Shown here piece by piece: positions 173-22,365 of a stretch of 22,365 nt of DNA. The translations under genes were made by a program, and so were the position numbers. The stretch lies in NCBI GenBank assembly GCA_964591795.1, contig CAZQEL010000015.1:1-22365 (forward strand), given 5' to 3'. Origin of the DNA: an uncultured archaeon. GTDB lineage: Archaea; Iainarchaeota; Iainarchaeia; Iainarchaeales; CSSED10-239. The first letter of the stretch is position 1. Every line of letters begins with the position of its first letter. The notes beneath the pieces were generated by a model that saw only the letters and a program-made list of their open reading frames with translations, was not told the DNA's origin and ran no database searches.

Positions 173-724
173 ATGGATGAAAAAATATTTAATAAAGGTT
201 ATAAATATAACCTAATAAAAACAAAAAGATTGATTCTTGTAAAACCAGATTTAAAATATAAAGAAGAACTTTATAACCTTTATATAAATACAAAAATTTG
301 GGTTTATAATGGTGGCGGTAATAATAATTATTCGCCCAATAGTGTAATTATAGAAATTAAAAAGAAAAGAAAATTATGGTTACAAAAAAAAATGGTTTCT
401 TTTTTTATAATTTATAAAAATAAATTTGTGGGTACAATTAGTTTAAATAATATTAGCCCTGATTTTAAAAATGCACAAGTTGGATTTATATTACTTCCAG
501 ATTATTGGGATAAAGGACTTATGTCTGAGGCATTGTTTGAGTTTATGAACTTTATTTTTAAAAATACTAATCTTTTTAGAATTTCTGCTGAGGTGTGTAC
601 TAAAAATATTGGTTCAGTTAAGGTTTTAGAAAAAAATAAATTTAAAAGAGAAGGAATTTTAAAAAAGTCAGCTATCTATAATGGGAAAGTATATGATAAG
701 TATCTTTATGCTTCGTTAAAATAA
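173..724 (+). CDS. GNAT-family N-acetyltransferase (RimJ/RimL-like)
   Basis: 183 aa. The C-terminal half (GFILLPDYWDKGLMSEALFEFMNF...RISAEVCTKNIGSVKVLEKNKFKREGILKK) matches the acetyl-CoA binding core and the typical 'N..S..v.ek.GF..EG' tail of RimJ/RimL-type GNATs. Confidence 0.75.
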   Translation: MDEKIFNKGYKYNLIKTKRLILVKPDLKYKEELYNLYINTKIWVYNGGGNNNYSPNSVIIEIKKKRKLWLQKKMVSFFIIYKNKFVGTISLNNISPDFKNAQVGFILLPDYWDKGLMSEALFEFMNFIFKNTNLFRISAEVCTKNIGSVKVLEKNKFKREGILKKSAIYNGKVYDKYLYASLK

Positions 725-2512: not shown

Positions 2513-3138
2513 TGTCTCGCCATCTACTTATAAATAAAAAAACTAAATTACCTAAAGTTGAAAAAGGTGCTAAACTTTCAGGTGGAGCTAGAGTTCATGC
2601 ACATGATGTCGATCATAATGTGCATCATGGTACTCCTCACATTCATCTAAACGATGGAACTGTTCTAAATGTTTTTTCAGGGGTAATTTATCGTAAAAAA
2701 GTAGTTGTAGGTAAAATGAAGTCAAAAGAACTTTTAAAAATAAGAACTGCAATTATGGAAAATATGATTTCTGTTGCTGAAGGTAAATATAATTTAGATG
2801 GTAAAACTACTTATGTGCATTCAGATACACGTGACCCTTTACCAACAAAAGTACATGTTCATACTGATAGTTTAACTTTTTCTGCAGATAAAAAAGTATA
2901 TAATGTAGGTACACAAAATATAGAACTAAACAAAGTACATGCTAAATTAGATGTTGTACCTAACTCTTTTTATAATAACTTTTCAGAGTACTATAAAAAG
3001 CATCTAACTGTAGATTCAATTCAATCTTCACTTCTTAATAAATTAAATATTTTAGTTAAATCAACAAATATTTGTAGAGAGTATTTCAAGGATAGTCATG
3101 GGGTTGATTTTGAATCTCATAATTTAGATGCTTTTTAA
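2512..3138 (+). CDS. hypothetical His-rich protein with a possible DUF4160-like 'PHxH' core
   Basis: 208 aa. RVHAHDVDHNVHHGTPHIHLNDGTVLNV is followed by YVHSDT, KVHVHTDSLTF and KVHAKLD. The PHIH...G...K..L segment resembles the PHFH core of DUF4160 proteins. This comparison is from memory and was not searched. Confidence 0.5.
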   Translation: MSRHLLINKKTKLPKVEKGAKLSGGARVHAHDVDHNVHHGTPHIHLNDGTVLNVFSGVIYRKKVVVGKMKSKELLKIRTAIMENMISVAEGKYNLDGKTTYVHSDTRDPLPTKVHVHTDSLTFSADKKVYNVGTQNIELNKVHAKLDVVPNSFYNNFSEYYKKHLTVDSIQSSLLNKLNILVKSTNICREYFKDSHGVDFESHNLDAF

Positions 3139-3337
3139 TTTAATTAATTTTGAGATTTAAAAGTCAGAACTAGATATCTATAATGGAAAAGTACATTATG
3201 ATCATATATATGCTTTAGTAAAATAAAATTTAATTATAATAAACTATTTTGCATTTTTGTTTAAATATATATATTTAAAAATAGTTGTATCTTCCATATA
3301 TTTTATTAACTTTTAGATAATTATTTTGTGGATATTT

Positions 3338-3811
3338 ATGGTAGATAATAGGATATTACTTTATAAAATTATTACTTCTATAATTTTATTTGCGTTATTT
3401 TTGTGGACACTACTTTTTACTTTAATTTTAAATGATAAATATGTGTATTTATCTCTTTTGTTGCCTTTGGTTATAGGGTTTATTGTTGTTTTTTTACTTA
3501 AATTATTTTTAACTAAAACCACTTTTAAACTTTTTTTTAACAGCATCAAAATAGTTTTTATAGGTTATTTATTATTTTCAGTAATAACTATACTTACATA
3601 CTTTATTATTAAATTAAATAATTTGATTTTAAATATTATATATTCAAACTTACTTTTTTTAATTGGAATTTATATCGTTTGGAAATTTTTTGGTAGAGAT
3701 TTCACTCCTAACGAAGTAAATTATTTTAATGATTTTGAATCAAATCCTCCAGAACAAACAGATCCTATAATTGCAAATTATTTTGTTACAACTAATTTTT
3801 CAGAAGATTAG
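3338..3811 (+). CDS. multi-TM membrane protein; N-terminal part of a DUF2207-like gene, ending at an in-frame TAG
   Basis: About 4 hydrophobic helices are followed by GRDFTPNEVNYF. ATG at 3338 is preferred over the listed TTG at 3326 and is preceded by GTGGAT. The TAG at 3809-3811 is followed by open frame into the next ORF. Confidence 0.55.
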   Translation: MVDNRILLYKIITSIILFALFLWTLLFTLILNDKYVYLSLLLPLVIGFIVVFLLKLFLTKTTFKLFFNSIKIVFIGYLLFSVITILTYFIIKLNNLILNIIYSNLLFLIGIYIVWKFFGRDFTPNEVNYFNDFESNPPEQTDPIIANYFVTTNFSED

Positions 3812-3856
3812 TTTTCGTCTGCTATTATTTATTTAGTATGGAAAAAAGTATATATT

Positions 3857-4462
3857 TTGACTAAAAAATCATCCGATTTTATTTTAAAAATTAATACTAA
3901 AAATGTTTTAAAAGAACCTTTACCTTTTTATGTTGAAAAAACATTTGATTTTTTAAAAAAACAATATAATACAAATGAAATTAGTTTTAAAGATTTAAAA
4001 CAAAAGATTTGTGATTTTAAGAAAACATCTGATTTCTCTGTTAGTTATTATACTTTAAGTTTTGATTTGAACAACTATTATGATAATTATTTATCTAAAC
4101 AGAATTATTTTTCTTACAAAGGAATTTATATTTATTTTTTCTACATGTTTTTTAGTTATTATATTTTTTTTATATTTGCAAACGAAACTAGTTATTGGTA
4201 TCTATTAGTACCTTTACTAATTGGTTTTTTATCTGTACTATATTCAACTAAATTAATTCTATTATTTGGTAGATTTACAAAAAAAGGGGCTATCTTACAT
4301 TATAAATGGGTAAATTATAAAAAATATTTAGCTACTTATTCAAATATGCATGAAAAAGGAATTTTAGAAGTAAATTTATGGGATTATCATCTTATTTATG
4401 CATCAGTATTTAATCTTGCAAATAAAATAAAGAGTAAATTTAATAATTTTTTTGTAAAATAA
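3857..4462 (+). CDS. DUF2207-like membrane protein, C-terminal part
   Basis: Same frame as 3338..3811. It has only a TTG start and no nearby ATG. The C-terminal GRFTKKGAILHYKWVNYKKYLATYS...LWDYHLIYASVFNLANKI resembles the DUF2207 signature (rT..G...W.gF+.yL ... lWe.yLvYA.aLG). Confidence 0.55.
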   Translation: MTKKSSDFILKINTKNVLKEPLPFYVEKTFDFLKKQYNTNEISFKDLKQKICDFKKTSDFSVSYYTLSFDLNNYYDNYLSKQNYFSYKGIYIYFFYMFFSYYIFFIFANETSYWYLLVPLLIGFLSVLYSTKLILLFGRFTKKGAILHYKWVNYKKYLATYSNMHEKGILEVNLWDYHLIYASVFNLANKIKSKFNNFFVK

Positions 4463-4556
4463 AATTTTTTAATCCTTTTGTAAATATATTAATATTTATT
4501 GAATACATAAGTATTTAATTATCATTGTGTTAAGTAATATTAATTAAGGAAAAATT

Positions 4557-5195
4557 ATGCTTAAAGATTTAAAAAATAATTTGATTTTTAAAAAATATCT
4601 TAAAAAACCTAATTTTATTAGTGATAGTTTTATTTTAAAATCAAAAAATCTACTTTTAAAAGATAAACTTGATGATTTTTTAGTTAATGTTGCTAAATTA
4701 ATGAAAAGTAAAAAACTTAATTCTAATGAAATTTTTCATTTTTATAGTTATTTATTAAATTCATTTGAAAAAGATAATAAAACTAATGATTTTCTAAAGA
4801 AGTATGTTTATTCTAGATTATCGTCTAAAATGTATTTTATTTATACTAATTTAATTGATATTGAAATATATCAATTTTTATTAAAAAGTGATACTAATTT
4901 TAAAAAAATTAAAGATAAAGATGTGCTTTTTGTAAAAGTAAGTAAAGATTATATTAATTTATTAGATTTAATTAATAAATTAGATGTTAATAAAATTAAA
5001 ACTATAAAATCAAAAGTTATAACTGTTAAAAATTATCTTAGACATTTAATTAAAAGTAAACAATTAAATAAAAAAATTGCAAACTATATTTTAGATATTA
5101 TCTATTGGGAATTATCTTATGATTTTGAATTAGATTATAAGGATTCGTCTATTAAAATGAATGATTTTCTTAAACCAAGTGATTTTAAAATTTAA
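4557..5195 (+). CDS. hypothetical protein
   Basis: 212-aa ORF with AAGGA 6 nt upstream of the ATG. It is Lys/Asn/Leu-rich and has no motif I recognise. Confidence 0.45.
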   Translation: MLKDLKNNLIFKKYLKKPNFISDSFILKSKNLLLKDKLDDFLVNVAKLMKSKKLNSNEIFHFYSYLLNSFEKDNKTNDFLKKYVYSRLSSKMYFIYTNLIDIEIYQFLLKSDTNFKKIKDKDVLFVKVSKDYINLLDLINKLDVNKIKTIKSKVITVKNYLRHLIKSKQLNKKIANYILDIIYWELSYDFELDYKDSSIKMNDFLKPSDFKI

Positions 5196-5272: not shown

Positions 5273-6109
5273 ATGCAAAAACAGATAATTTCTAAATTAA
5301 CTAAGACTTTTGAAGAACATGCTTATATTAAAGATGGGATTGAATTTTGGCTTGCAAGAGAATTACAAGTTCTTTTAGGGTATATTGAATGGAGAAAGTT
5401 TTTAGGGGTTATAAATAAAGCTAAAATTGCTTGTGAAAAATCAGGATTAGATATTAATGACCATTTTGTCGACACCGCCAAAAAGGTAGAAATTGGGTCT
5501 GAAGCTAAAAGAGACATAGAAGATATATTACTTACAAGATATGCTTGTTACTTAATAGCTCAAAATGGAGATTCCAGAAAAGAAGAAATTGCATTTGCAC
5601 AAAGTTATTTTGCAATTCAAACTAGAAAACAAGAACTTATAGAAGAAAGAATAAAATTAAAAGAAAGAATTGACGCTAGAGAAAAATTAAGTAAATCAGA
5701 AACTGAATTATCTAAATTAATATATGAACGAGGGGTCGATCAAAAAGGATTTTCTAGAATAAGAAGTAAAGGTGATGAAGCTTTATTTGGTGGAAGTACA
5801 ACCTTTGAAATAAAAAGAAAATTAAATATTTCTAAAAATAGACCTTTAGCTGATTTTCTACCAACAGTTACAATTGCTGCAAAAAATCTTGCAACTGAAA
5901 TGACTAATTTTAATGTTAAAAAAGAAAATTTAAATGGTGAACCTAAAATTACTGATGAACATATAAAAAACAATTCAGAAGTTAGGGGGGTTTTAGTTAA
6001 GAATAAAATTTACCCTGAAAAGTTACCTCCTGAGGAAGATATTAAAAAATTAAATAGAAAATTGAATGTTTCTAAAAAATTAAAAAATGGTTCTAAAAGT
6101 ATTAAATAA
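5273..6109 (+). CDS. dinD: DNA damage-inducible protein D (DinD family)
   Basis: GIEFWLARELQVLLGY..W..F, VEIGSEAKRDIEDILLTRYACYLIAQNGDSRKEEIAFAQSYFAIQTRKQELIEE and the length (278 aa) match my recollection of the E. coli DinD family. Confidence 0.75.
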   Translation: MQKQIISKLTKTFEEHAYIKDGIEFWLARELQVLLGYIEWRKFLGVINKAKIACEKSGLDINDHFVDTAKKVEIGSEAKRDIEDILLTRYACYLIAQNGDSRKEEIAFAQSYFAIQTRKQELIEERIKLKERIDAREKLSKSETELSKLIYERGVDQKGFSRIRSKGDEALFGGSTTFEIKRKLNISKNRPLADFLPTVTIAAKNLATEMTNFNVKKENLNGEPKITDEHIKNNSEVRGVLVKNKIYPEKLPPEEDIKKLNRKLNVSKKLKNGSKSIK

Positions 6110-8046: not shown

Positions 8047-8727
8047 TTATTTATCTTTAACAAAATTAAAATCCTTATTAAGTTTATAACCTTCTTCAGG
8101 AGTAAAATAAACTTCAAACTTGTATTTTTCTAAAAGTTTATAAAAATCAATCTTATAATTATCTCTTCTTTTAGTTATTTTTTCTTTATTAAACAACATA
8201 TGTGTGAAAATTCTAGTAAATTGATTCTTAGCACCTCTAAGTGATACCTTTTCCTTTACCATATACTCATTTATCTTCTTTTGAATGTTTTTCATAAATA
8301 CAGGATTTATTTTAATAGTAGTATACCCTAAAACCTTACCTTTTGGATTAACAACTCCAATTACTTCATAACCATGTTTTGTTTTAGGATAGTTAAAAAT
8401 AGAATCAATAAATGTATTTAGATTAGGAATTGCGCTTCCACTACTAACTATTTTATTTGCTTTTGGGTTAAATACTGCTGTGTGAAAGAAAGTTCCCTTT
8501 TCTTTAAGTTTTAGTTTTTTAGTATTTATTTCATTAAAAAGTTTATCATACCTTTCAAAGTTAACTGGTTTATAAGTTTTATTTTTGTCTTTTGTAACAT
8601 TAACTATTCTTTCACCAGGATGTTTATAAAAAGAAGATTCAGTTTTATTTGTTTCTTTTAAAACTTTTTCAAACTTATTTTTTCCAATTTTTGATTTTGG
8701 AATGATTTTTGGTTTTAGTTTAGGCAT
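8047..8727 (-). CDS. hypothetical basic protein; shares an N-terminal motif with 13292..13984
   Basis: 226-aa ORF convergent with uvrB, with a 2-nt spacer. KPKIIPKSKIGKNKF compares with KPKLIRKSSIVKNKI in the ORF at 13292. Confidence 0.5.
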   Translation of the reverse strand: MPKLKPKIIPKSKIGKNKFEKVLKETNKTESSFYKHPGERIVNVTKDKNKTYKPVNFERYDKLFNEINTKKLKLKEKGTFFHTAVFNPKANKIVSSGSAIPNLNTFIDSIFNYPKTKHGYEVIGVVNPKGKVLGYTTIKINPVFMKNIQKKINEYMVKEKVSLRGAKNQFTRIFTHMLFNKEKITKRRDNYKIDFYKLLEKYKFEVYFTPEEGYKLNKDFNFVKDK

Positions 8728-9498: not shown

Positions 9499-9699
9499 TT
9501 ATTTATTCTTTTTTTTATGATTAACAGGTGCTATTAACCATAGAATAATATAAGCTAAGAAAAAAATACCAAAACTAAAAATTGCAAGTAAAGCCCAAAT
9601 AAGTCTTATTAAAGTTGGATCTGCGTTTATATATTCTGCAAAACCAGAAGCAACTCCACCAATTATAACATCTTTTGAACTTCTTTTGTATTTTTTCAT
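9499..9699 (-). CDS. PspC domain-containing small membrane protein
   Basis: RSSKDVIIGGVASGFAEYINADPTLIRLIWALLAIFS followed by a TM helix is the typical PspC N-terminal domain pattern. Confidence 0.75.
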   Translation of the reverse strand: MKKYKRSSKDVIIGGVASGFAEYINADPTLIRLIWALLAIFSFGIFFLAYIILWLIAPVNHKKKNK

Positions 9700-9822
9700 A
9701 AATTTATCTCTTTTTTAATTTTTAGTTGTTTATAAATATTTATTATTAAAAAGTCTTTATAAGTATATTTAAATATTCTTTTTTCTATATATTATATATA
9801 AATATATAAATAAAGATTAAAC

Positions 9823-10758
9823 ATGGAATATACAAAAGATTTTTTATGGAAAAAAGGCCTTACAGTATCAGAATTGGTTGAGGGTTTTGGAAATATTGGG
9901 TTTCAATCATACGAACTTAAAAGAGCATCAGATCTTTTAGTTAAAATGAAAAAAGAAGGTGCTAAAGTATATCTTTCATATACTTCAAATATGGTTACTT
10001 CAGGTCTACGTGGTTTTTTTGCTCAAGTAATTGATAAAAAAATGTGTGATGTTATAGTTACAACTGTTGGTGCTATTGAAGAAGATATTATGAAAGCTGA
10101 TGGAGATAAATTTATTCTTTCTTCCTTTTCTTCAAATGATGAAGAGCTTTATGAAAGAGGAGAGAATCGAGTTGGTAATATATTAATTACAAATGATCAA
10201 TATCAAAAATTTGAAGCAAAAATGCAAGTAATTTTAAAAGATATTTATACAACTAAGAAATCATTAACAATTTCTGAACTATTAAGAGAAATTGGTTTAA
10301 GAATAAATGATACTAATTCAATTCTTTATCAAGCAGCAAAAAACAATATCCCTATCTTTTGCCCTGCAATAACAGATGGTTCATTTGGTTTCCATTTATA
10401 TTTATTTAAGGACGAACATAAGGATTTTAACATTGATATAATTAATGATTTTAAAAATATTATTTTTTCAACATCACATGATGAAAAAAAAGGAATTATT
10501 GCACTTGGTGGTGGAGTTTCAAAGCATCATGTAATATTAACTACATTAATTAATGGTGGAGCTGATTATGCTCTTTATATGACAACAGCATCTCCTCGTT
10601 CAGGAAGTCTTTCTGGAGCAACAACTGATGAAGCTAAGTCTTGGGGGAAAATAAAAAATAATTCTGATGCTGTTACTGTTATAGGTGATGTAACCATAAC
10701 TTTTCCAATAGCTATGGTTTCTGCACTAGATACTTTAGAAAAAGAAGGATTAATTTAA
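9823..10758 (+). CDS. dys: deoxyhypusine synthase
   Basis: 311 aa. It has the GGGVSKHH motif and the catalytic-lysine motif EAKSWGKI near the C-terminus. Length and motif order are typical of archaeal DHS. Confidence 0.9.
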   Translation: MEYTKDFLWKKGLTVSELVEGFGNIGFQSYELKRASDLLVKMKKEGAKVYLSYTSNMVTSGLRGFFAQVIDKKMCDVIVTTVGAIEEDIMKADGDKFILSSFSSNDEELYERGENRVGNILITNDQYQKFEAKMQVILKDIYTTKKSLTISELLREIGLRINDTNSILYQAAKNNIPIFCPAITDGSFGFHLYLFKDEHKDFNIDIINDFKNIIFSTSHDEKKGIIALGGGVSKHHVILTTLINGGADYALYMTTASPRSGSLSGATTDEAKSWGKIKNNSDAVTVIGDVTITFPIAMVSALDTLEKEGLI

Positions 10759-11127
10759 ATGATTAAAAAAAGTGTTAATTTAATTAAAAATAAACTATTA
10801 AAAGCAAATATATTTAAAAAAAAAGTAAATGTTTATTCTAAATTAAATAAAAGATATAAAGAAAAAGTAAAACTAGCTTATTTTTCAGAAATGCCATCTA
10901 AGAAAAAAATAACTGGCTTATTATTAGAAAACAAATTAGTTGTTTTTTTAAATTCTAATAAAGAATCAATAATTGGTAATTCTAAGTATATGTCCTTTCA
11001 GGCTTTTATTTTTAAAAAAGAAATAAATTTCACTAAAATTCAATTTAATGGGAATTTAAAAAATTCACTTAGAAATATTTTTGAAATAAAATTATTTAAT
11101 GATTTTTTAGTTAATTTTTCAAAATAA
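10759..11127 (+). CDS. hypothetical protein
   Basis: The start abuts the dys stop (TAAATG). 122 aa, Lys/Asn-rich, with no known motif. The TAA at 11125-11127 is followed by open frame into 11194..11379. Confidence 0.4.
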   Translation: MIKKSVNLIKNKLLKANIFKKKVNVYSKLNKRYKEKVKLAYFSEMPSKKKITGLLLENKLVVFLNSNKESIIGNSKYMSFQAFIFKKEINFTKIQFNGNLKNSLRNIFEIKLFNDFLVNFSK

Positions 11128-11193
11128 AACAAATTTTCAAAAATTACAATAGACACTTGGATATTTGAAGAGTTTAAAGGGTTATCTAAATTT

Positions 11194-11379
11194 ATGGGTG
11201 GTTTTAAAGCATCTGATGTAAATAAACTTATAAAATATCATGAAGCACTTAAGACTAATGATGTTAAAAAAGTATTATCTTTTGATTTTAGTAAAAATAG
11301 ATTAAATTGTTTGACAAATAATGGTGAAAATATTAATTTAAATATTGAATTACCTTGTTATGTTTTAAAAGTTAAGTGA
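11194..11379 (+). CDS. hypothetical small protein
   Basis: 61 aa, in the same frame as 10759..11127. Its TGA stop lies inside the GTGAT that precedes the decarboxylase start. Confidence 0.35.
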   Translation: MGGFKASDVNKLIKYHEALKTNDVKKVLSFDFSKNRLNCLTNNGENINLNIELPCYVLKVK

Positions 11380-11384
11380 TATTT

Positions 11385-12431
11385 ATGAAATCAAATGCAA
11401 AATTTATATTTTCTAAAAAAATAATTTTAAAAGAATATAAAAAAATACAAGATGTTTCAGATATTGTTTCATATAGTGTTAAATCAAATCCATATATTGT
11501 TGGTATTTTAGAAAATAACACTACTTGTAAATTTTTAATACATCACATAAATGAAATGTCTAAAATTAAAAATAAGAAAAATGTATGGTATATGTTACAT
11601 TCTCCTGATAAAGAAGAGATTGAATTACTTTTTAAAGAAGGTATAAATAAATTTATTATTGATAATAAAAACGATTTTAATTTTTTACTTAATGAAATAG
11701 AAAAAAATAATTATAAAATAACTTTACTTTTAAGAATGAGACTTAAGGAATATACAGTTGTTACTGGTAAGTATTTTGTATATGGATTTTATTCAAAAGA
11801 AGTTAATGAGCTTATTAGTGTATTGAAAAATAATCCTTTAATTGAAAATAAAGGTATTCATTTTCATAGGAAAACACAAAATTTATCTGAATGGAACTTA
11901 ATTTCTGAAATTGAATCATCTTTAACAAAAGAAACTTTAGATTTGATTGGTTTGTTGGACATTGGTGGTGGTTTACCGGTTGTTTATAAAAATATAAATC
12001 CAAGAACTTTAGATGTTATTTATAAAAAAATAACAGAGCTTAAACAATTTTTAAATAATAAGAATATAAAATTAATTACTGAACCTGGTAGAAGTATTGC
12101 TGCACCTTCAGGTAAACTTGTTACAACTATTAAAAATATTGTTGATGATACAATATTTATTGATGCTTCTTTATTTAATTGTTCAATGGATACATTAGTT
12201 GCACATATTAAACTTTTAGTTGAAGGAGAAAATGATGTTGATATTGGTAAACCATATACTATTAAGGGATTAACTCCTGCTTCAGAAGATATTTTTAGAT
12301 ATAGGGTTTATTTTAAAGAAGGTTACATTCCTAAAATTGGTGATAATATCATTTTTAATAATGCTGGAGCCTATATTTATTATACTGATCTTTTTAACTT
12401 AGAAAGACCAAAAATTGAATTTGTTGATTAG
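11385..12431 (+). CDS. PLP-dependent decarboxylase, Orn/DAP/Arg decarboxylase family (fold type III)
   Basis: PLP-lysine motif SYSVKSNP, HFHRKTQN (HxGSq-like), LDIGGGLPV, ITEPGRSI and NNAGAYIYY...FN. ATG at 11385, with GTGAT 4 nt upstream, is preferred over the listed GTG at 11376. Substrate cannot be assigned from sequence. Confidence 0.8.
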   Translation: MKSNAKFIFSKKIILKEYKKIQDVSDIVSYSVKSNPYIVGILENNTTCKFLIHHINEMSKIKNKKNVWYMLHSPDKEEIELLFKEGINKFIIDNKNDFNFLLNEIEKNNYKITLLLRMRLKEYTVVTGKYFVYGFYSKEVNELISVLKNNPLIENKGIHFHRKTQNLSEWNLISEIESSLTKETLDLIGLLDIGGGLPVVYKNINPRTLDVIYKKITELKQFLNNKNIKLITEPGRSIAAPSGKLVTTIKNIVDDTIFIDASLFNCSMDTLVAHIKLLVEGENDVDIGKPYTIKGLTPASEDIFRYRVYFKEGYIPKIGDNIIFNNAGAYIYYTDLFNLERPKIEFVD

Positions 12432-12433
12432 AT

Positions 12434-13270
12434 ATGGATATTAAAAAACCCTTAAAAATAATTTTAAAATCAAAAGAAAAAGATTCAACTATAGTTAAAC
12501 CATTTTCCTTAAATAAAAAATCTGTTAATTATAAGCAAAAAATGGTTCTTTATAGTCCAGAAATAAAAAAATTATTTAAATCAATAACAGGTATGGGTAA
12601 AAATACTTCGCCAGACTATGTTCCTGGTGCAATGGTGGTTATTCATAAACATCTAAATTCTTCAGATAAATTTTCTTTAAAATACACAGATCCTAAAGGA
12701 AGATTTGTAATAAATTCAGTTTCAATTAATACTATGTTACCTTCTAATATACATAAAGCTTACAAGTTAGATATTTTTGAAAATAATAAAACCTATTCTT
12801 TTTATATTAAGGCAATTTTTGAAAATACTGAATTTAAACAATCCACACAGAAAATTATTATACAAAAGTTTATGGAAAAAAAAGGTTTTAATGTTATAAG
12901 ACCTAAATTTGCATTTTCAGAAGTTAATACTGAAGTTATGGATTTAAGGCTTATTGAAAGTAAAAAATGTGGTTTTCATTTTATTGTTTATGATTATACA
13001 AACCTAAAAAATGTTTATGATTCTTATTTGTTAAAAGAAATAACTTCAAAAGACTATATAGCAATTTCAAAAAAGTTAGATTTAATTAAAATAAGTTTTT
13101 CTAATGAACAAATAAGAGATATTGTTTCAAAAAATGTGTATTATGAAAAAATAAAAAATAAATTTAATTCATTTAATATTTATAAGTTATTTATTTCTGA
13201 TTTATATTTAATTGATTTAGATAAAAAAATATTAGCTGAATTTGCAAAAAAAGAAGATTTAGTTAAATAA
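12434..13270 (+). CDS. hypothetical protein, paralogue of 13292..13984
   Basis: Several collinear matched blocks with the next ORF, including FIVYDYTNLKNVYD versus YICYEYKNLPNVFE. The start is 2 nt after the decarboxylase stop. Confidence 0.55.
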   Translation: MDIKKPLKIILKSKEKDSTIVKPFSLNKKSVNYKQKMVLYSPEIKKLFKSITGMGKNTSPDYVPGAMVVIHKHLNSSDKFSLKYTDPKGRFVINSVSINTMLPSNIHKAYKLDIFENNKTYSFYIKAIFENTEFKQSTQKIIIQKFMEKKGFNVIRPKFAFSEVNTEVMDLRLIESKKCGFHFIVYDYTNLKNVYDSYLLKEITSKDYIAISKKLDLIKISFSNEQIRDIVSKNVYYEKIKNKFNSFNIYKLFISDLYLIDLDKKILAEFAKKEDLVK

Positions 13271-13291
13271 ATTTATTAATAGGAAATATTT

Positions 13292-13984
13292 ATGGTTATT
13301 AGAAAATTTAAATTAATTAATAAGTCAAAGGTTAATAAACCTAAATTAATTAGAAAAAGCAGTATTGTAAAGAATAAAATTTCTCGAGATCTAATTTATT
13401 CTAAACAAATTAGGGCAGCCTTTAGAAAATTACCTGGCCTTTTAAGTGCCTTTAAAGAATTAAAGGTAAATCCAAGATTAAATGTTATCAAAGATCCTAA
13501 TAGAAAATTTGATATTGTAAGATATAAAAATTTTTTAAAGAAAGAGGTTAATTTTTATGGCGAAAATACAAAAAGTTCATTTATTTTATCTTTATATTTA
13601 GTAAAAGGAAAACCAAAAAGATACTATGTTAAGGAAGCACCACATAATACTGAACTTTCATCAGTTTTAGAGTTTATTAGTATGTCTGTTTTAAATAAAT
13701 TAAATATAAATATAATAAAACCTGTTTTTGCATATGATTCTATTGCTAAAAAAAATAGTTATATTTGTTATGAATATAAAAATCTTCCAAATGTTTTTGA
13801 AGCATTATCTAAACATTTAATTAGTTTAGAAGAATTTAATGCTATTGAAACAAAAATTTCGTATTTTAGAAATCATCTTAATAAGTATGGAATTAAGGAT
13901 TTTGCATCAATTAATGCATTAATTAATGTTAAAACTAAGAAACTTTATATGTTAGATACCTTTATTAAAGAAGTTAAACACTAA
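13292..13984 (+). CDS. hypothetical protein, paralogue of 12434..13270; possible kinase-like motif order
   Basis: AGGA lies 7 nt upstream of the ATG. The motif order YYVKE...NTEL...IIKPVFAY...YICYEY...GIKDFASINALIN...LYMLDTF resembles the Lys / alphaC-Glu / hinge / catalytic-loop / DFG-like order of small RIO- or Bud32-type kinases. This is unverified. Confidence 0.55.
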   Translation: MVIRKFKLINKSKVNKPKLIRKSSIVKNKISRDLIYSKQIRAAFRKLPGLLSAFKELKVNPRLNVIKDPNRKFDIVRYKNFLKKEVNFYGENTKSSFILSLYLVKGKPKRYYVKEAPHNTELSSVLEFISMSVLNKLNINIIKPVFAYDSIAKKNSYICYEYKNLPNVFEALSKHLISLEEFNAIETKISYFRNHLNKYGIKDFASINALINVKTKKLYMLDTFIKEVKH

Positions 13985-14024
13985 AAATAAATTTATTTTT
14001 TAAATTGAAAAAATATTAAACTGC

Positions 14025-14030
14025 AAGGTG
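14025..14030 (+). promoter_or_regulatory. Shine-Dalgarno AAGGTG, 7 nt upstream of the agmatinase ATG
   Basis: The sequence reads ctgcAAGGTGttatattATG. Confidence 0.5.
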
Positions 14031-14037
14031 TTATATT

Positions 14038-14922
14038 ATGATCAAAATTAATTACTTAAACTTAAACGAAGAATATTCTTTTAAGGAAAACTCACAAATA
14101 CATATTTATCCTTTGTCTTTTAAACAGAAAGCTACCACTAAAAATTCATCTTTTAATGGACCTGAAGAAATTTTAAAAGCTTCAAGAGAAATTGAATATT
14201 TTGATGAGGAATTTAAAATTGAACCATATTTAAATGGAATTTATACTCATGAGATAATTAATTTAAAAAATAAAGATGAAGGATTTATTTTATCTGAAAA
14301 AATTATTAATAAATTAAAACCTTTAGTTGAAAAAAATAAATTAAATATTTTTCTTGGAAGTGATCATTGGACTACACATGGAATTGTTTCTGTTTTTGAA
14401 AAACAATATAAAGATTTTGGAGTAATATCTTTTGATGCTCATCTTGATTTAAGAGAAGAGTGGGGAAAAGGTACTTGGTGGCATGCATGTGTTTTAAGAG
14501 AAATTTCTAAAAAGCATAAGTGTCTTATTTTAGGTTCTAGAAGTTCTGATTTTTATGAGAATGAATATCTTAAGTCAAATAACAGTGTATCTGTAATTTC
14601 CTCAAGAGAAATAAATAGGAAAAAAAGTTTAACACATTTCAAATATTTTTTAAAAAAACTACCTAAAAATATTTATATTACTATAGATTCAGATGTTTTT
14701 GATCCGTCTATTATTAGAAATACTGATACTCCTGAACCTAACGGGCTTTCATGGATACAAGTTAATGCGTTTTTAAAAGAAATTTTTAAAACTAAAAACG
14801 TTATTGGGGTAGATTTAGTTGAATTTTCGCCAAAAGGTCCTGAATGGAATTATCACAGTGAAGCTTATACTTTGGCTAAATTAATTTATAAAATTATTAG
14901 TTATAAATTTAATGTTAAATGA
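14038..14922 (+). CDS. speB: agmatinase / arginase-family ureohydrolase
   Basis: The Mn-ligand motifs are all present: GSDHW (GGDHS-like), FDAHLDLR, ITIDSDVFDP, TPEPNGLS and GVDLVEFSP. Confidence 0.85.
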   Translation: MIKINYLNLNEEYSFKENSQIHIYPLSFKQKATTKNSSFNGPEEILKASREIEYFDEEFKIEPYLNGIYTHEIINLKNKDEGFILSEKIINKLKPLVEKNKLNIFLGSDHWTTHGIVSVFEKQYKDFGVISFDAHLDLREEWGKGTWWHACVLREISKKHKCLILGSRSSDFYENEYLKSNNSVSVISSREINRKKSLTHFKYFLKKLPKNIYITIDSDVFDPSIIRNTDTPEPNGLSWIQVNAFLKEIFKTKNVIGVDLVEFSPKGPEWNYHSEAYTLAKLIYKIISYKFNVK

Positions 14923-14982: not shown

Positions 14983-16515
14983 ATGAAAACAAGATTTTTA
15001 ATTTCCTTTCAAATAATATTTTTATTTATTCTAATTTTAAGTACATTTACTTTTTCTGAAACTTTAGATGATTCTTGTGGTCCTAGTGATAATTTATGTA
15101 TTATTAATAATATAATTGATGTTAATTATAATAATCCTTTAGAATTAACTAATAATTTAGATGCAAATTTAACTTGTGGAGTTTATTTCACAGGAATTGG
15201 ATGTCCTCATTGTGCAAAGATAGATCCTGTGTTATTTAAGGATATTATTGTTAATAATCCTAAACTGGTTATAATAGAATTTGAAGCAAAACAAAAGAAA
15301 GAAAATGCTCGTCTTTCAATAGGTTATGATGATATTTATAATTCTGGCTTTGATACTCCATTTTTAATTTTTAATAAAGAAAATGTTTTTAATTATCAAT
15401 ATATTTTATCTTTCTTTGAAAACGATTTTAATTCTTTAAATAATAATGCTTGTCCATTTCCAACATCAGTATATCCTGATGGTACTACTTCTTTTTCTAA
15501 AATAAATTTAAACAATCTTAATTCTTCACCAGTAATTTGGTATAACGATAGGGCTTTAGAAAAAACTTCTTTTGCAAAAGAAACTTCCAATGATTTTTTA
15601 CATAAATTACTAACTGATTCGAATATTGAATTACTTTTAGAAAATTCAGATTATAATTATATAAAAGAAGCTCACATATCATATTCTGGAGGTACTTTAT
15701 TTTTTGATAATGCTGTTGATGTTAATGGTTGGATAATATATTTTAATGGAGAATGTAGTCTTGTTGGTTCCAGTGAATGTAAAGATGTTGATTCTGAATA
15801 TGGAACTACAGAAAAAGCAAATTATGAACGACTAAGTTTATTAAAGGTAATAACTTTAGCATTAGCTGATGCTGTTAACCCTTGTTCATTTGCAGTTCTT
15901 TTAATTTTATTGTTAACAATAACTACTTTAAATCCTGATAATAAACGAAAAATATTATATTCTGGTCTTGCGTTTTCATTTTCAATATTTGTTTTATATT
16001 TTTTATATGGATTAATACTAGTTACTTTTTTTAGTGCTTTTTCAGGAAATATTACTGTAATTATTTATAAGTTTTTTGCAGTTGTTGCTATTCTTTTAGG
16101 TGCTTGGCAAATAAGAGATTATATTTATTATAAACCTGGAACTGTTGGTACTGAAATGCCACTTAGTTTAAGACCAAAGGTTAAAAAAATAATATCTAGA
16201 GCAACTTCTCCTTTAGGTGCTGGAATTGTTGGTGTATTTGTTTCTTTATTTTTACTTCCTTGTACTATAGGACCATATATTATTGCCACATCTTCTTTAG
16301 CATTAATAGATATATTAAAATCAATTCCTTTATTACTTTTATATAATTTAATATTTATTTTACCAATGGTATTTATTACAATAATTATATATTTTGGTCT
16401 TAAAAAAATAGAAGATATTGGTGCCTGGAAAGAAAAAAATATTAAATATTTCCATTTAATTACTGGTGCTTTAATTTTGTTACTAGGATTATTAATGTTA
16501 TTTGGTTTATTGTGA
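14983..16515 (+). CDS. secreted CPHC thioredoxin-like domain fused to a CcdA/DsbD-like 6-TM thiol-disulfide transporter domain
   Basis: N-terminal signal/anchor (FLISFQIIFLFILILSTFTFS). GIGCPHCAKIDP has a DsbA-type CPHC active site. The C-terminal ~230 aa contain 6 hydrophobic helices, with Cys in helix 1 (AVNPCSFAVL) and helix 4 (LLPCTIGPYI), as in CcdA. Confidence 0.7.
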   Translation: MKTRFLISFQIIFLFILILSTFTFSETLDDSCGPSDNLCIINNIIDVNYNNPLELTNNLDANLTCGVYFTGIGCPHCAKIDPVLFKDIIVNNPKLVIIEFEAKQKKENARLSIGYDDIYNSGFDTPFLIFNKENVFNYQYILSFFENDFNSLNNNACPFPTSVYPDGTTSFSKINLNNLNSSPVIWYNDRALEKTSFAKETSNDFLHKLLTDSNIELLLENSDYNYIKEAHISYSGGTLFFDNAVDVNGWIIYFNGECSLVGSSECKDVDSEYGTTEKANYERLSLLKVITLALADAVNPCSFAVLLILLLTITTLNPDNKRKILYSGLAFSFSIFVLYFLYGLILVTFFSAFSGNITVIIYKFFAVVAILLGAWQIRDYIYYKPGTVGTEMPLSLRPKVKKIISRATSPLGAGIVGVFVSLFLLPCTIGPYIIATSSLALIDILKSIPLLLLYNLIFILPMVFITIIIYFGLKKIEDIGAWKEKNIKYFHLITGALILLLGLLMLFGLL

Positions 16516-16595
16516 TTTTCAGATTATTTTAAACATAAACAAATATCTTTATATACTTGTTTGTAATTAAATATATTAACTTAAACTGATTAGAT

Positions 16596-17987
16596 ATGAC
16601 TACTATTTTATGGATTATTATAATATTTGCTTCTCTTTTTATATTAGCAAATGTTTCAAAAAAATTATTTAAAACTGATATTTATTTAGGTCTTTTTATA
16701 ATGATAAAAACAAGAAGATTTATTCCTTTTTTAGATAAACTTGCAAAACCTAAAAAAATCTTAAATATAATTACAGATATTGGTATTGTTTTAGGATTTG
16801 GTGCTTTTGGACTTGATTATGTTTTAAAAGAAAAAATAAAATCAAAATTAAAAAGATTGTTTTTATTTATTTTTTCATCAATTATTTTAAGCTATGTTTT
16901 CTATTTTGGTTTAGGTTTAATGCTTAAAAATAATCCTATGGTATCAGCAAACTTTTTATGGTTTATGGCAATACTTTCTGGAATTATGGGTCTTAGTGGT
17001 TTTACTTTATCATCTTTAGTTTTTTCAGCCTATGATATTGTTGTTAAATTATTTGCAGGAACTGTTGCTTCAGCTTGTCCTGGTGTAGGGCTTGTTATTC
17101 CTGGGGTTAAAATGCCTAAGATTGAGCTATTAATTCCATGGTATGGATGGATTATTTTAATTATTTCTGCTATAGTGCATGAGTTTTCACATGGTGCTAT
17201 GCTTAGAACACTTAAAGCTAAAGTTAAGTCTATGGGTTTTATCTTAGCTGGACTATTTCCACTTGGTGCTTTTGTAGAACCTGATGATAAAGAACTTAAA
17301 AAGAAGAAAAATAAATCTATTATTAGAATGCTTTCTGCTGGACCTACTAGTAATACAATAATTGCGATTGTTTTTATCTTAATATATTTATTAATTACAC
17401 CTGGTATTGCAAACTATTCACAGTCAATAGCAGTTCAAAGAGAATCAAGTCTTTTTATTTATTCAGTTGATCAAAATATTTCTATTTGTGGTACTATTTT
17501 TGATAGTCCTGCATATGGTTTAGTTGATGTTAATTCTCAAATTTTTTCTGTAAATGATAAATTAATAAAAAATCGTTATGATTTGATATCTGCAACAAAA
17601 CTTGATTATGATAATAAATTTATTTTTAAAAATACTAATACTAATATAGAAAAAGAAATTTATCTTAAACCAAATGAAATGGGTAGACTTGGTTTTACTT
17701 ATAATGTAAATTATGATTCTTCATTTGTAATTCCTCAAAAATATTATTGGTATAAGACTATTTTATCAGTAGTTTTGTGGAGTGCTGTATTAAACTTTTT
17801 AATAGCTACTGTTAATTTCCTTCCAACTTTTCCATTTGATGGTGGAATGATGTCTAAAATTATATTTGAAGGATATCTTCCACGAAAGAAACAAAATGAG
17901 AAAAAGAGAATGAAAAAAGTAGCAAGATTCTTTGGAATATTAATAATTGTTTTACTTTTATTAAATATTCTTCCTTACTTTTTTTAA
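16596..17987 (+). CDS. site-2 protease family (M50) membrane metalloprotease
   Basis: HEFSHGAM is an HExxH motif in a TM segment. The distal motif is NFLPTFPFDGG (NxxPxxxxDG). A central PDZ-like segment is present (FDSPAYGLVDVNSQIFSVND). Confidence 0.85.
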   Translation: MTTILWIIIIFASLFILANVSKKLFKTDIYLGLFIMIKTRRFIPFLDKLAKPKKILNIITDIGIVLGFGAFGLDYVLKEKIKSKLKRLFLFIFSSIILSYVFYFGLGLMLKNNPMVSANFLWFMAILSGIMGLSGFTLSSLVFSAYDIVVKLFAGTVASACPGVGLVIPGVKMPKIELLIPWYGWIILIISAIVHEFSHGAMLRTLKAKVKSMGFILAGLFPLGAFVEPDDKELKKKKNKSIIRMLSAGPTSNTIIAIVFILIYLLITPGIANYSQSIAVQRESSLFIYSVDQNISICGTIFDSPAYGLVDVNSQIFSVNDKLIKNRYDLISATKLDYDNKFIFKNTNTNIEKEIYLKPNEMGRLGFTYNVNYDSSFVIPQKYYWYKTILSVVLWSAVLNFLIATVNFLPTFPFDGGMMSKIIFEGYLPRKKQNEKKRMKKVARFFGILIIVLLLLNILPYFF

Positions 17988-19049: not shown

Positions 19050-19050
19050 G

Positions 19051-19122
19051 TGCACCCGTCGGGATTCGAACCCGAGTCCCAAGCTTGGAAGGCTCAAATA
19101 CTAACCACTATACTACGAGTGC
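19051..19122 (-). tRNA. tRNA-Gly(TCC): tRNA-Gly (anticodon TCC)
   Basis: Hand-folded cloverleaf. Acceptor GCACTCG/CGGGTGC, D stem GTAT/GTAT, anticodon stem TGAGC/GCTTG, loop CTTCCAA, T arm TCGGG-TTCGAAT-CCCGA, discriminator A. 72 nt, no encoded CCA, no intron. Confidence 0.9.
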
Positions 19123-20798: not shown

Positions 20799-20872
20799 GC
20801 TCTTGTGGTGTAGTCCGGTAATCATTCTGGCCTTTCAAGCCAGAGACTCGGGTTCGAATCCCGGCGAGAGCA
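20799..20872 (+). tRNA. tRNA-Glu(TTC): tRNA-Glu (anticodon TTC)
   Basis: Hand-folded. Acceptor GCTCTTG/CGAGAGC, the GTGTAGTCCGGTAATCAT D arm typical of archaeal tRNA-Glu, anticodon stem CTGGC/GCCAG, loop CTTTCAA, T arm TCGGG-TTCGAAT-CCCGG, discriminator A. 74 nt, no CCA, no intron. Confidence 0.9.
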
Positions 20873-21076: not shown

Positions 21077-21116
21077 GGCAGTTTAATTTTATTTATTTAT
21101 TTATTTATTGAAAATT

Positions 21117-21572
21117 ATGCAAAAAGAAGATTGTGTTTTTTGTAAAATTACAAAAAAAGAAATTGATTCTGCAATTATTTATGAAGATAATGAATTTATT
21201 GCTATTTTAGATGGATATCCTAATACTAAGGGACAAACTCTTGTTCTTACAAAAGAACATTATGGTTAATATGTTTTTAATTTACCTGATTCTATTTATA
21301 TAAAATTATTAGAGGTTTCTAAAAAAGTTGTAAAGATTTTAGAAAAAGGGCTTTTAACTAAAAGAGTAGCTATGGTTTTTGAAGGACAAGGTGTAGATTA
21401 TATTCATATTAAATTATATCCTATGCATAATATTGATGAAAATAAATTTGGAGAACTTTCTGGAAATGTTTATTTTGAAAAATATCCTGGATATATTACA
21501 ACATTAATTGGACAAGCTCAAGATATTGAAACTAGTAAAAAAATTGCAAATGAAATTATTTCAAATAAATAA
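21117..21572 (+). pseudogene. HIT-family protein gene interrupted by an in-frame TAA (21267-21269), with a degenerate histidine triad
   Basis: A single frame reads MQKEDCVFCKI...KGQTLVLTKEHYG*YVFNLPD...VDYIHIKLYPMH...ISNK*. The N-terminal part before the stop is typical HIT. The listed ORF 21372..21572 is only the tail of this frame. Confidence 0.7.
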
Positions 21573-21863: not shown

Positions 21864-22365
21864 ATTCCAGCTGATCCTGCTGGTGGGTACTGCTATTGGA
21901 ATCTGACTAAGACATGCAAGTCTAAAAGTCTCAGCTATGAGAGATTTTGGCGAACGGCTCAGTAACACGTGGTCAATCTACCCTTTTGAAGAGTTAAACT
22001 CGGAAAACTGAGTATAATGCTCTATAGAAAAGTAAATCTGGAATGATTACTATTCTAAAGGTTAAAGGTTCATGCATCTTTAACGCGAAAGGATGAGACT
22101 GCGCCAGATTAGGTAGTTGGTAGGGTAACTGCCTACCAAGCCGAAGATCTGTACGGGCCTTGAGAGAGGGAGCCCGGAGAAGGGAACTGAGATAATGTCC
22201 CTAGCCCTACGGGGTGCAGCAGTTACGAAACTTTTACAATGCGGGAAACCGTGATAAAGAGATTCCAAGTGCTTACTATGTAAGCTTTTATATAGTGTGA
22301 AAAACTATGTGAATAAGAGGAGGGCAATATACGTGCCAGCCGCCGCGGTAATACGTAATCCTCAA
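21864..22365 (+). rRNA. rrs: 16S rRNA, 5' ~500 nt (runs off the window end), archaeal type
   Basis: ATTCCAGCTGATCCTGCTGG...ACTGCTATTGGAATCTGACTAAGACATGCAAGTC, CCCTACGGGGTGCAGCAGTTACGAAA and GTGCCAGCCGCCGCGGTAATAC match archaeal 16S landmarks in the correct order and spacing. Confidence 0.95.

Follow-up and report, generated by a model that had tools for sequence, protein, structure and literature searches.

In this study, we analysed a 22,365-nt stretch (positions 1–22,365 of contig CAZQEL010000015.1; hereafter the window) from an Iainarchaeia archaeon (Diapherotrites, DPANN) near Ca. Forterrea, and focused on a run of open reading frames (ORFs) on the + strand, at 9823–14922, that contains the genes for a deoxyhypusine synthase (DHS) homologue, a pyridoxal phosphate (PLP)-dependent decarboxylase and an agmatinase-family ureohydrolase. 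A sequence-only reading had described this run as an operon of eight ORFs in which four unknown proteins are interleaved with the three enzymes. Its own list names seven ORFs. In fact there are six genes, three of them unknowns, and one unknown is present as a nonsense allele: two of the supposed unknowns, ORF122 and ORF61, are halves of one gene. The genes are, in order, the DHS homologue (311 aa; 9823–10758), an orphan gene designated X (206 aa; 10759–11379), the decarboxylase (348 aa; 11385–12431), two kinase-like paralogues of a family designated PAR (paralogue 1, 278 aa, 12434–13270; paralogue 2, 230 aa, 13292–13984) and the ureohydrolase (294 aa; 14038–14922), all on the + strand. The tight packing noted earlier was borne out. 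The intergenic gaps along the six-gene run are 0, 5, 2, 21 and 53 nt; the DHS stop and the next start form TAAATG at 10756–10761, and the TGA stop of ORF61 (11377–11379) lies inside GTGAT, 5 nt ahead of the decarboxylase ATG at 11385. The common strand and the short junctions identify the cluster as a predicted operon, that is, a single transcription unit. Immediately 5′ of its first gene lies an AT-rich spacer of 123 nt (9700–9822), read from its sequence as the presumed promoter region; a divergent PspC gene ends at 9699.

To place the operon among its relatives, 80 metagenome loci were fetched with a decarboxylase profile, loci found by protein look-up were added, and all were annotated with hidden Markov models (HMMs) built from the window proteins. 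Synteny was counted over 79 distinct decarboxylase loci, which were split at 60% decarboxylase identity to the window. Among the distant loci (<60% identity) with enough sequence, DHS was found directly upstream of the decarboxylase in 31 of 32, with flanks that were otherwise unrelated. Because this adjacency recurs in distant relatives with different flanks, the link between DHS and the decarboxylase goes beyond chance, and the pair survives a complete reshuffling of its surroundings. Within the clade (≥60% identity), an agmatinase lay at most five genes downstream of the decarboxylase in all 19 loci with enough flank, and DHS at most three genes upstream in 17 of 27. This conservation suggests that DHS, the decarboxylase and the agmatinase-family enzyme form a real functional unit. 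In agreement with the earlier statement that spermidine synthase and S-adenosylmethionine (AdoMet) decarboxylase are missing from the window, neither speE nor speD was found there, nor in ~95 related loci. The window has no aIF5A gene.

The first enzyme is a clear member of the DHS family (Pfam DS, PF01916; 339 bits, 2.9e-101), and its nearest solved relative is P. horikoshii DHS (7e-65). The catalytic Lys motif recognized by the sequence-only reading is present (SWGK, K276; human K329). The protein passed TIGR00321 marginally (305.4 against a cutoff of 304.25) and scored below the cutoffs of the other DHS equivalog models. It retains the residues equivalent to human K329, E323, W327, H288 and D238, and is without the acidic spermidine-binding residues, human D243 being replaced by Phe, D316 by Leu and D313 by Ser. 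A survey of 46 distinct decarboxylase-linked DHS sequences, in human numbering, revealed the same pocket throughout: position 243 is Phe in all 46, while 45 have Leu, Met or Ile at 316 (the remaining one being unresolved) and 43 have Ser at 313. Asp238 and His288 are found in all 46 of these sequences, and Glu323, Trp327 and Lys329 in 45. Two plasmid-borne bacterial SpeY-type proteins (Sphingomonas and Trichormus) also have Phe at 243, whereas human and P. horikoshii DHS have Asp. In Thermus CdmS, which couples agmatine, the counterparts of human D243 and D316 are F204 and L286, and it is exactly at these two sites that CdmS and human DHS differ (PMC10981699). The pocket of the window DHS is thus of an agmatine type (SpeY/CdmS-like) and looks suited to agmatine rather than spermidine. 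Since His288 is kept where bacterial SpeY has Asn, the decarboxylase-linked DHS of DPANN archaea form a type of their own.

The second enzyme had been named a PLP decarboxylase, and its match to Orn_Arg_deC_N (PF02784, 4.4e-10) upholds this identity; it is of the alanine-racemase fold (fold type III). More than 1300 homologues were found, and those with a named source are nearly all from DPANN archaea (Diapherotrites, Woese-, Nano- and Micrarchaeia), mostly from metagenome-assembled genomes (MAGs). The invariant motifs of this family are the PLP-Lys, HFHR, GGG, EPGR and a C-terminal GAY, and its invariant residues include K33, H159/H161, G194–196, E233/G235/R236 and Y330. Homologues of ornithine decarboxylase (ODC) that have this fold and lie beside speY have proved to be arginine decarboxylases (PMC13625781). 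By analogy with this precedent, and given the agmatinase and the SpeY-like DHS in its context, the window enzyme is probably an arginine decarboxylase (ADC).

The last gene of the operon encodes a Mn ureohydrolase of the arginase family (PF00491, 4.3e-43). Its metal motifs GSDH, DAHLD, DSDVFDP and DLVEFSP align to those of the solved putative agmatinase 3lhl, so that all Mn-ligand motifs are present, as the sequence-only reading had stated. The score against the agmatinase equivalog TIGR01230 was 152 bits, below the cutoff of 174.3. Ureohydrolase homologues associated with SpeY can be specific for bis-guanidino-homospermidine (PMC13625781). The candidate substrates of the window enzyme are agmatine, bis-guanidino-homospermidine or guanidinobutyl-Lys.

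Gene X is broken in the window. ORF122 and ORF61 share a frame, with only a TAA at 11125–11127 (+) between them, which cuts X after residue 122. The sibling contigs L001 (99.86% identical to the window) and L002 (99.94%) read CAA (Gln) at 11125 and carry X as a single ORF; over 8.3 kb the window and L002 differ in only five places, of which the TAA is one. In the Forterrea/Iainarchaeum clade, homologues of 203–222 aa are encoded between the DHS and decarboxylase genes; X is present in the completely sequenced Ca. Forterrea multitransposorum and in Ca. Iainarchaeum and ‘ainarchaeum’ MAGs. Because the siblings have CAA in place of TAA and the homologues at the same place are of full size, ORF122 and ORF61 are one 206-aa gene, interrupted in this strain by a nonsense codon (C to T). 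We considered and rejected programmed readthrough, since the CAA of the siblings fits an ordinary C-to-T change. In sibling L001, uvrB is split into two ORFs by a 1-nt deletion at L001 ~319 (= window 7241); as uvrB is intact and X broken in the window, close strains bear different inactivating changes.

An AlphaFold2 (AF2) model of X (pLDDT 79) was searched with Foldseek, and nearly all of the top matches were GNAT acetyltransferases, with weak scores (E from 2.5e-3, TM 0.22–0.37, probability up to 1.0). X is thus a candidate for a GNAT-like fold. Its core ends in a ‘KY-LGGF’ motif that resembles GNAT motif B; the Q/RxxGxG/A acetyl-CoA loop of GNATs is lacking, and the corresponding stretch, KNSLRN, has no Gly. 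Sequence searches of Pfam, NCBIfam, PADLOC, PHROGs and PDB gave no match for X. The start of the window (173–724, +) carries a gene for a canonical GNAT (Acetyltransf_3, 1e-19); the sequence of this GNAT is unrelated to X, and hhalign found no match between the two.

X was found between DHS and the decarboxylase in 10 loci of the clade and was missing in L008, L022 and L031. In L008, whose decarboxylase is 84% identical to that of the window, the decarboxylase starts 16 nt past the DHS stop and leaves no X. An apparent truncation of the L008 DHS, without the catalytic Lys, was dismissed as a scaffold gap of Ns; the C-terminus is present. The place of X is taken by an AbiEii toxin gene with its upstream partner in L021 (6349–7916), by a Fic/DOC gene in L029 (6507–7718) and by a kinase-like gene in two loci of the clade. 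The junction between DHS and the decarboxylase is an insertion hotspot.

The two PAR proteins had been called paralogues, and their kinship was verified: they share 27% identity over 113 aa (E=2e-7), and one family HMM matches both (paralogue 2 at 2.7e-59). An AF2 model of paralogue 1, built from a ten-sequence alignment, reached a pLDDT of 80. In the Foldseek search of the PDB library with this model, the top 50 matches were all protein kinases, and in the viral library BFVD nearly all were kinases, with E down to 3.8e-5; the probability was up to 1.0 and the TM-scores were low (0.27–0.40). The PAR family is therefore modelled as having a protein-kinase-like fold. Conservation among 26 distinct members follows the kinase catalytic residues: the catalytic Lys is present in 25, the alpha-C Glu in 23, the Asp and Asn of the D..N loop in 18 and 23, and the metal-binding Asp in 24. 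Paralogue 2 carries all five residues (K/E/D/N/D), and paralogue 1 has K126, D229, N234 and D256, with Lys at the Glu140 position, and so is without the alpha-C Glu. No match was found for PAR in Pfam, NCBIfam, PADLOC, PHROGs or PDB sequences, kinase models included, nor between PAR and PKA by hhalign. A word-indexed homology search with paralogue 2 returned paralogue 2 alone, and relatives of the family were found by an exhaustive HMMER search with paralogue 1. In 8 of 19 clade loci, one to three PAR genes separate the decarboxylase from the agmatinase, and the other 11 lack them; the slot is elsewhere filled by a DEAD-box helicase or a DNA_alkylation gene. An initial view that PAR is not conserved, based on the variable slots of L004, L005 and L006, was revised to that of a clade-restricted accessory, since PAR occupies the slot in many lineages.

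We propose, with a probability of roughly 0.6, that the core of the operon is an agmatine-dependent 4-guanidinobutyl-transfer module, for which we infer all substrates and products. The PLP decarboxylase would convert arginine into agmatine; DHS would oxidize agmatine in an NAD-dependent step, hold the 4-guanidinobutyl group on its catalytic Lys and then pass it to an amine acceptor; and the agmatinase-family enzyme would then strip urea. With the Lys of aIF5A as acceptor the outcome would be deoxyhypusine, as in the model of Prunetti 2016, and with a second agmatine it would be homospermidine, formed via bis-guanidino-homospermidine as in the SpeY/DUH pathway. A single enzyme may carry out both reactions in a genome of ~0.7–0.8 Mb. 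Several observations weigh against this proposal. The window DHS failed the bacterial SpeY model NCBIfam NF002699 (140 bits against a cutoff of 500), and the DPANN DHS depart from bacterial SpeY at two pocket positions, with His288 in place of Asn and Ser at 313 in place of Asp. The Phe/Leu signature is based on one modelled enzyme from the literature and two bacterial sequences found here, and its contrast is one spermidine-type archaeal DHS. The decarboxylase is roughly equidistant from solved diaminopimelate, Lys/Orn and Arg decarboxylases, so that homology gives no substrate, and its canonical catalytic Cys (CxSxD motif, ODC Cys360) is replaced by an invariant Pro298 (TPxSxD), at the alignment position where 2p3e, 6n2a and 2plj have the Cys. 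An agmatinase was found within 8 kb in only 4 of 17 distant DHS–decarboxylase pairs, most being without one. Finally, every PAR homologue with informative context in the exhaustive database search sits in this operon, which, beyond birth and retention at this site, argues for some functional tie, possibly a regulatory link, between PAR and the enzymes.

Two other accounts of the enzymes were weighed against the proposed module. The operon could serve homospermidine synthesis only, through an ADC, a SpeY-type diagmatine synthase and a diagmatine ureohydrolase, with aIF5A served by a separate canonical DHS elsewhere in the genome. Archaeal ADC-speY-speB clusters, including those of Diapherotrites and Woesearchaeota, are indeed labelled homospermidine clusters in the literature (PMC10407285), all tested SpeY enzymes form G44G from agmatine (PMC13625781), and the pocket Phe is common to the window DHS and bacterial SpeY. 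We nevertheless consider this account unlikely, given that the protein scores above the equivalog cutoff for archaeal DHS and below that for SpeY, that its His288 is as in true DHS, and that the genomes are of ~0.7–0.84 Mb, a size that makes a second DHS paralogue less likely. Alternatively, the decarboxylase and agmatinase could lead to putrescine by the canonical route, with spermidine made or imported elsewhere and used by DHS, and the clustering would then reflect polyamine housekeeping. The intact agmatinase motifs and the archaeal-type DHS, by overall similarity, agree with this route; the change of D243 and D316 to hydrophobic residues and of D313 to Ser in all or nearly all of the 46 linked DHS, the lack of speE and speD in the window and the related loci, and the sub-cutoff agmatinase score make it the least probable of the explanations considered here. 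The agmatine-dependent module may also be given a more specific form, in which the decarboxylase-linked DHS is the only DHS of minimal DPANN genomes, deoxyhypusinates aIF5A from agmatine without spermidine and is the ancestral archaeal counterpart of bacterial SpeY. We put this forward tentatively, with the odds somewhat against it. On these terms, transfer of the 4-guanidinobutyl group may add 113.1 Da and the clustered ureohydrolase may then remove urea, for a net gain of 71.1 Da, and the operon-specific GNAT-like and kinase-like proteins might optionally modify aIF5A or the enzymes.

As for X and PAR, their distribution suggests that they are accessory genes restricted to the Forterrea/Iainarchaeum clade, located at insertion-tolerant junctions and not part of the core; at most, they modulate the pathway and do not complete it. 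The values of dN/dS (~0.2–0.5 for both families, and 0.21–0.25 for X in close pairs, against 0–0.15 for the enzymes) point to purifying but relaxed selection on fast-evolving proteins. The sequence-only reading had offered the interleaved ORFs as missing components or regulators of aIF5A modification, for example a GNAT acting on (deoxy)hypusine or agmatine and kinases acting on aIF5A or DHS. For such a role speak their occurrence in this operon only, the informative PAR homologues all lying between or beside the decarboxylase and the agmatinase, the purifying selection on both families, and the plausibility of GNAT and kinase folds as modifiers. We regard it as very unlikely, as X carries a nonsense codon here and close relatives lack it or have other genes in its place, PAR is missing in 11 of the 19 clade operons, X lacks the GNAT Q/RxxGxG/A motif and paralogue 1 the alpha-C Glu. 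Moreover, the UvrB-to-FEN1 neighbourhood is entirely syntenic within the clade, and because of this the conserved position of X and PAR is weak evidence of function. Co-occurrence of the unknowns with DHS across DPANN had been suggested as a check, and neither X nor PAR was found beside any of the 31 distant DHS–decarboxylase pairs outside the clade. A selfish or defence role, with X and the kinase-like genes as cargo (toxin-like GNAT and kinase folds) in an insertion hotspot, would fit the AbiEi/AbiEii, Fic/DOC, DEAD helicase and DNA-alkylation repair genes that relatives carry at the same two junctions, and the copy number (0 to 3) and shifting position of PAR. It is also quite unlikely in our estimate: X and PAR have no PADLOC or PHROG matches and no partner antitoxin-sized ORFs, and orthologues as distant as 24–30% identity are still located at this site, which resembles vertical descent. 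Of the earlier idea of an agmatine-route module, therefore, the conserved three-enzyme unit has stood, the proposed agmatine route has gained strength from the Phe/Leu of the DHS pocket, and the need for the interleaved ORFs has found no support.

Beyond the operon, the window (G+C ~23%) contains further features. Downstream on the + strand, at 14983–17987, are genes for an SfLAP-like membrane protein and a Peptidase_M50, conserved neighbours that are not part of the core; the order agmatinase-SfLAP-M50 is maintained throughout the clade with ≥60% decarboxylase identity and lost outside it. Upstream, a family of ~226 aa without annotation or Pfam match (window 8047–8727, −; L004 3032–4376; L009 1692–3024) is conserved and often occurs as a tandem pair in relatives. 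Kinship of this 226-aa protein with paralogue 2, suggested by weak N-terminal similarity, was dropped, as the PAR family HMM did not detect it. A Bro-N domain protein (5273–6109, +) matched the PADLOC candidate defence-system model PDC-S13 (3.6e-111) and phrog_8036 (5e-81). Its gene adjoins a stretch at ~3000–5000 with 16–19% G+C and many unannotated ORFs, and the two together may be a foreign or defence islet. A second HIT-family gene appears split into ORFs of 53 and 66 aa (21108–21269 and 21372–21572, +), and similarly in L001; relatives keep an intact gene of ~151 aa, and the split gene is probably a pseudogene. The window also encodes tRNA-Gly(TCC) (19050–19122, −) and tRNA-Glu(TTC) (20799–20872, +). 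The 5′ part (487 nt) of an archaeal small-subunit (16S) rRNA lies at 21864–22365 and runs off the window end, which confirms an archaeal origin.

The locus and its relatives bear on two published questions, namely the source of deoxyhypusine in archaea without spermidine (Prunetti 2016) and whether agmatine-dependent DHS exist in archaea besides spermidine-dependent ones (Li et al. 2026). They provide a concrete test set: an archaeal DHS clade that always has the SpeY-type Phe243, almost always shares an operon with a PLP decarboxylase of its own, and often with a ureohydrolase. If agmatine-based modification of aIF5A is true, hypusination would be independent of spermidine across an entire branch of archaea, and an origin of bacterial SpeY would be suggested. 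The operon also brings to light uncharacterised families, the GNAT-like X, the kinase-like PAR and the decarboxylase itself, in which Pro stands throughout the DPANN family for the catalytic Cys of ODC, diaminopimelate decarboxylase and ADC and raises the question of which residue protonates C-alpha.

It is known that in the bacterial SpeY/CdmS pathway an ADC forms agmatine, homocoupling of agmatine gives N1,N9-bis(guanidino)homospermidine and a ureohydrolase (DUH) releases homospermidine (PMC10981699, PMC13625781), and SpeY homologues generally use agmatine (PMC13625781). The window operon resembles these systems in the clustering of the same three enzyme families and in the Phe and aliphatic residue at the D243 and D316 positions, and it resembles Sphingomonas and Rhodothalassium in having an alanine-racemase-fold ODC homologue beside the DHS homologue. 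On a Sphingomonas parapaucimobilis plasmid (NZ_CP155749.1; L099 3491–5960), the gene directly upstream of one for a SpeY-type DHS homologue codes for a type III PLP enzyme. As the window decarboxylase is only 24% identical to this enzyme, the two-gene arrangement in Sphingomonas appears to be an independent bacterial example, with the decarboxylase recruited independently. Unlike bacterial SpeY, the window DHS is archaeal, passes a true-DHS model and not the SpeY model, and has His288 and Ser313 in place of the Asn and Asp of SpeY.

Among archaeal systems, a model for Haloferax volcanii proposes agmatine-dependent deoxyhypusination of aIF5A, with clustering of DHS, agmatinase and aIF5A in Euryarchaeota (Prunetti et al. 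2016, PMC5178350). The window shares with it the archaeal DHS and agmatinase-like cluster, the lack of spermidine genes and the proposed chemistry, in which the agmatinase completes a reaction that DHS begins by transfer of the agmatine moiety. It differs in lacking aIF5A, in having its putative ADC inside the cluster as a PLP-dependent enzyme rather than an unlinked pyruvoyl PdaD, and in its DPANN lineage. Li et al. 2023 (PMC10407285) described speDA-speY-speB clusters in archaea of the MGII, Diapherotrites and Woesearchaeota groups and assigned them to homospermidine synthesis. Like the window operon, they bring an ADC, a DHS homologue and an agmatinase together in DPANN MAGs; their ADC, however, is a pyruvoyl enzyme derived from AdoMet decarboxylase, and the decarboxylase here is a non-homologous PLP enzyme of the alanine-racemase fold. 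The interleaved GNAT-like and kinase-like genes have no counterpart described for those clusters (PMC10407285). The candidate fold of X and the predicted fold of PAR match those of known GNATs (NatD, RimI, SpeG/PaiA/SSAT) and of eukaryotic-type protein kinases, respectively, and both families differ from these proteins in giving no Pfam, NCBIfam or PDB sequence match and TM-scores of 0.22–0.40. What is new at this locus is the partner decarboxylase family, the near-obligate pairing of DHS with the decarboxylase across DPANN archaea, and the fact that Phe243 never varies in proteins whose scores are otherwise those of true archaeal DHS.

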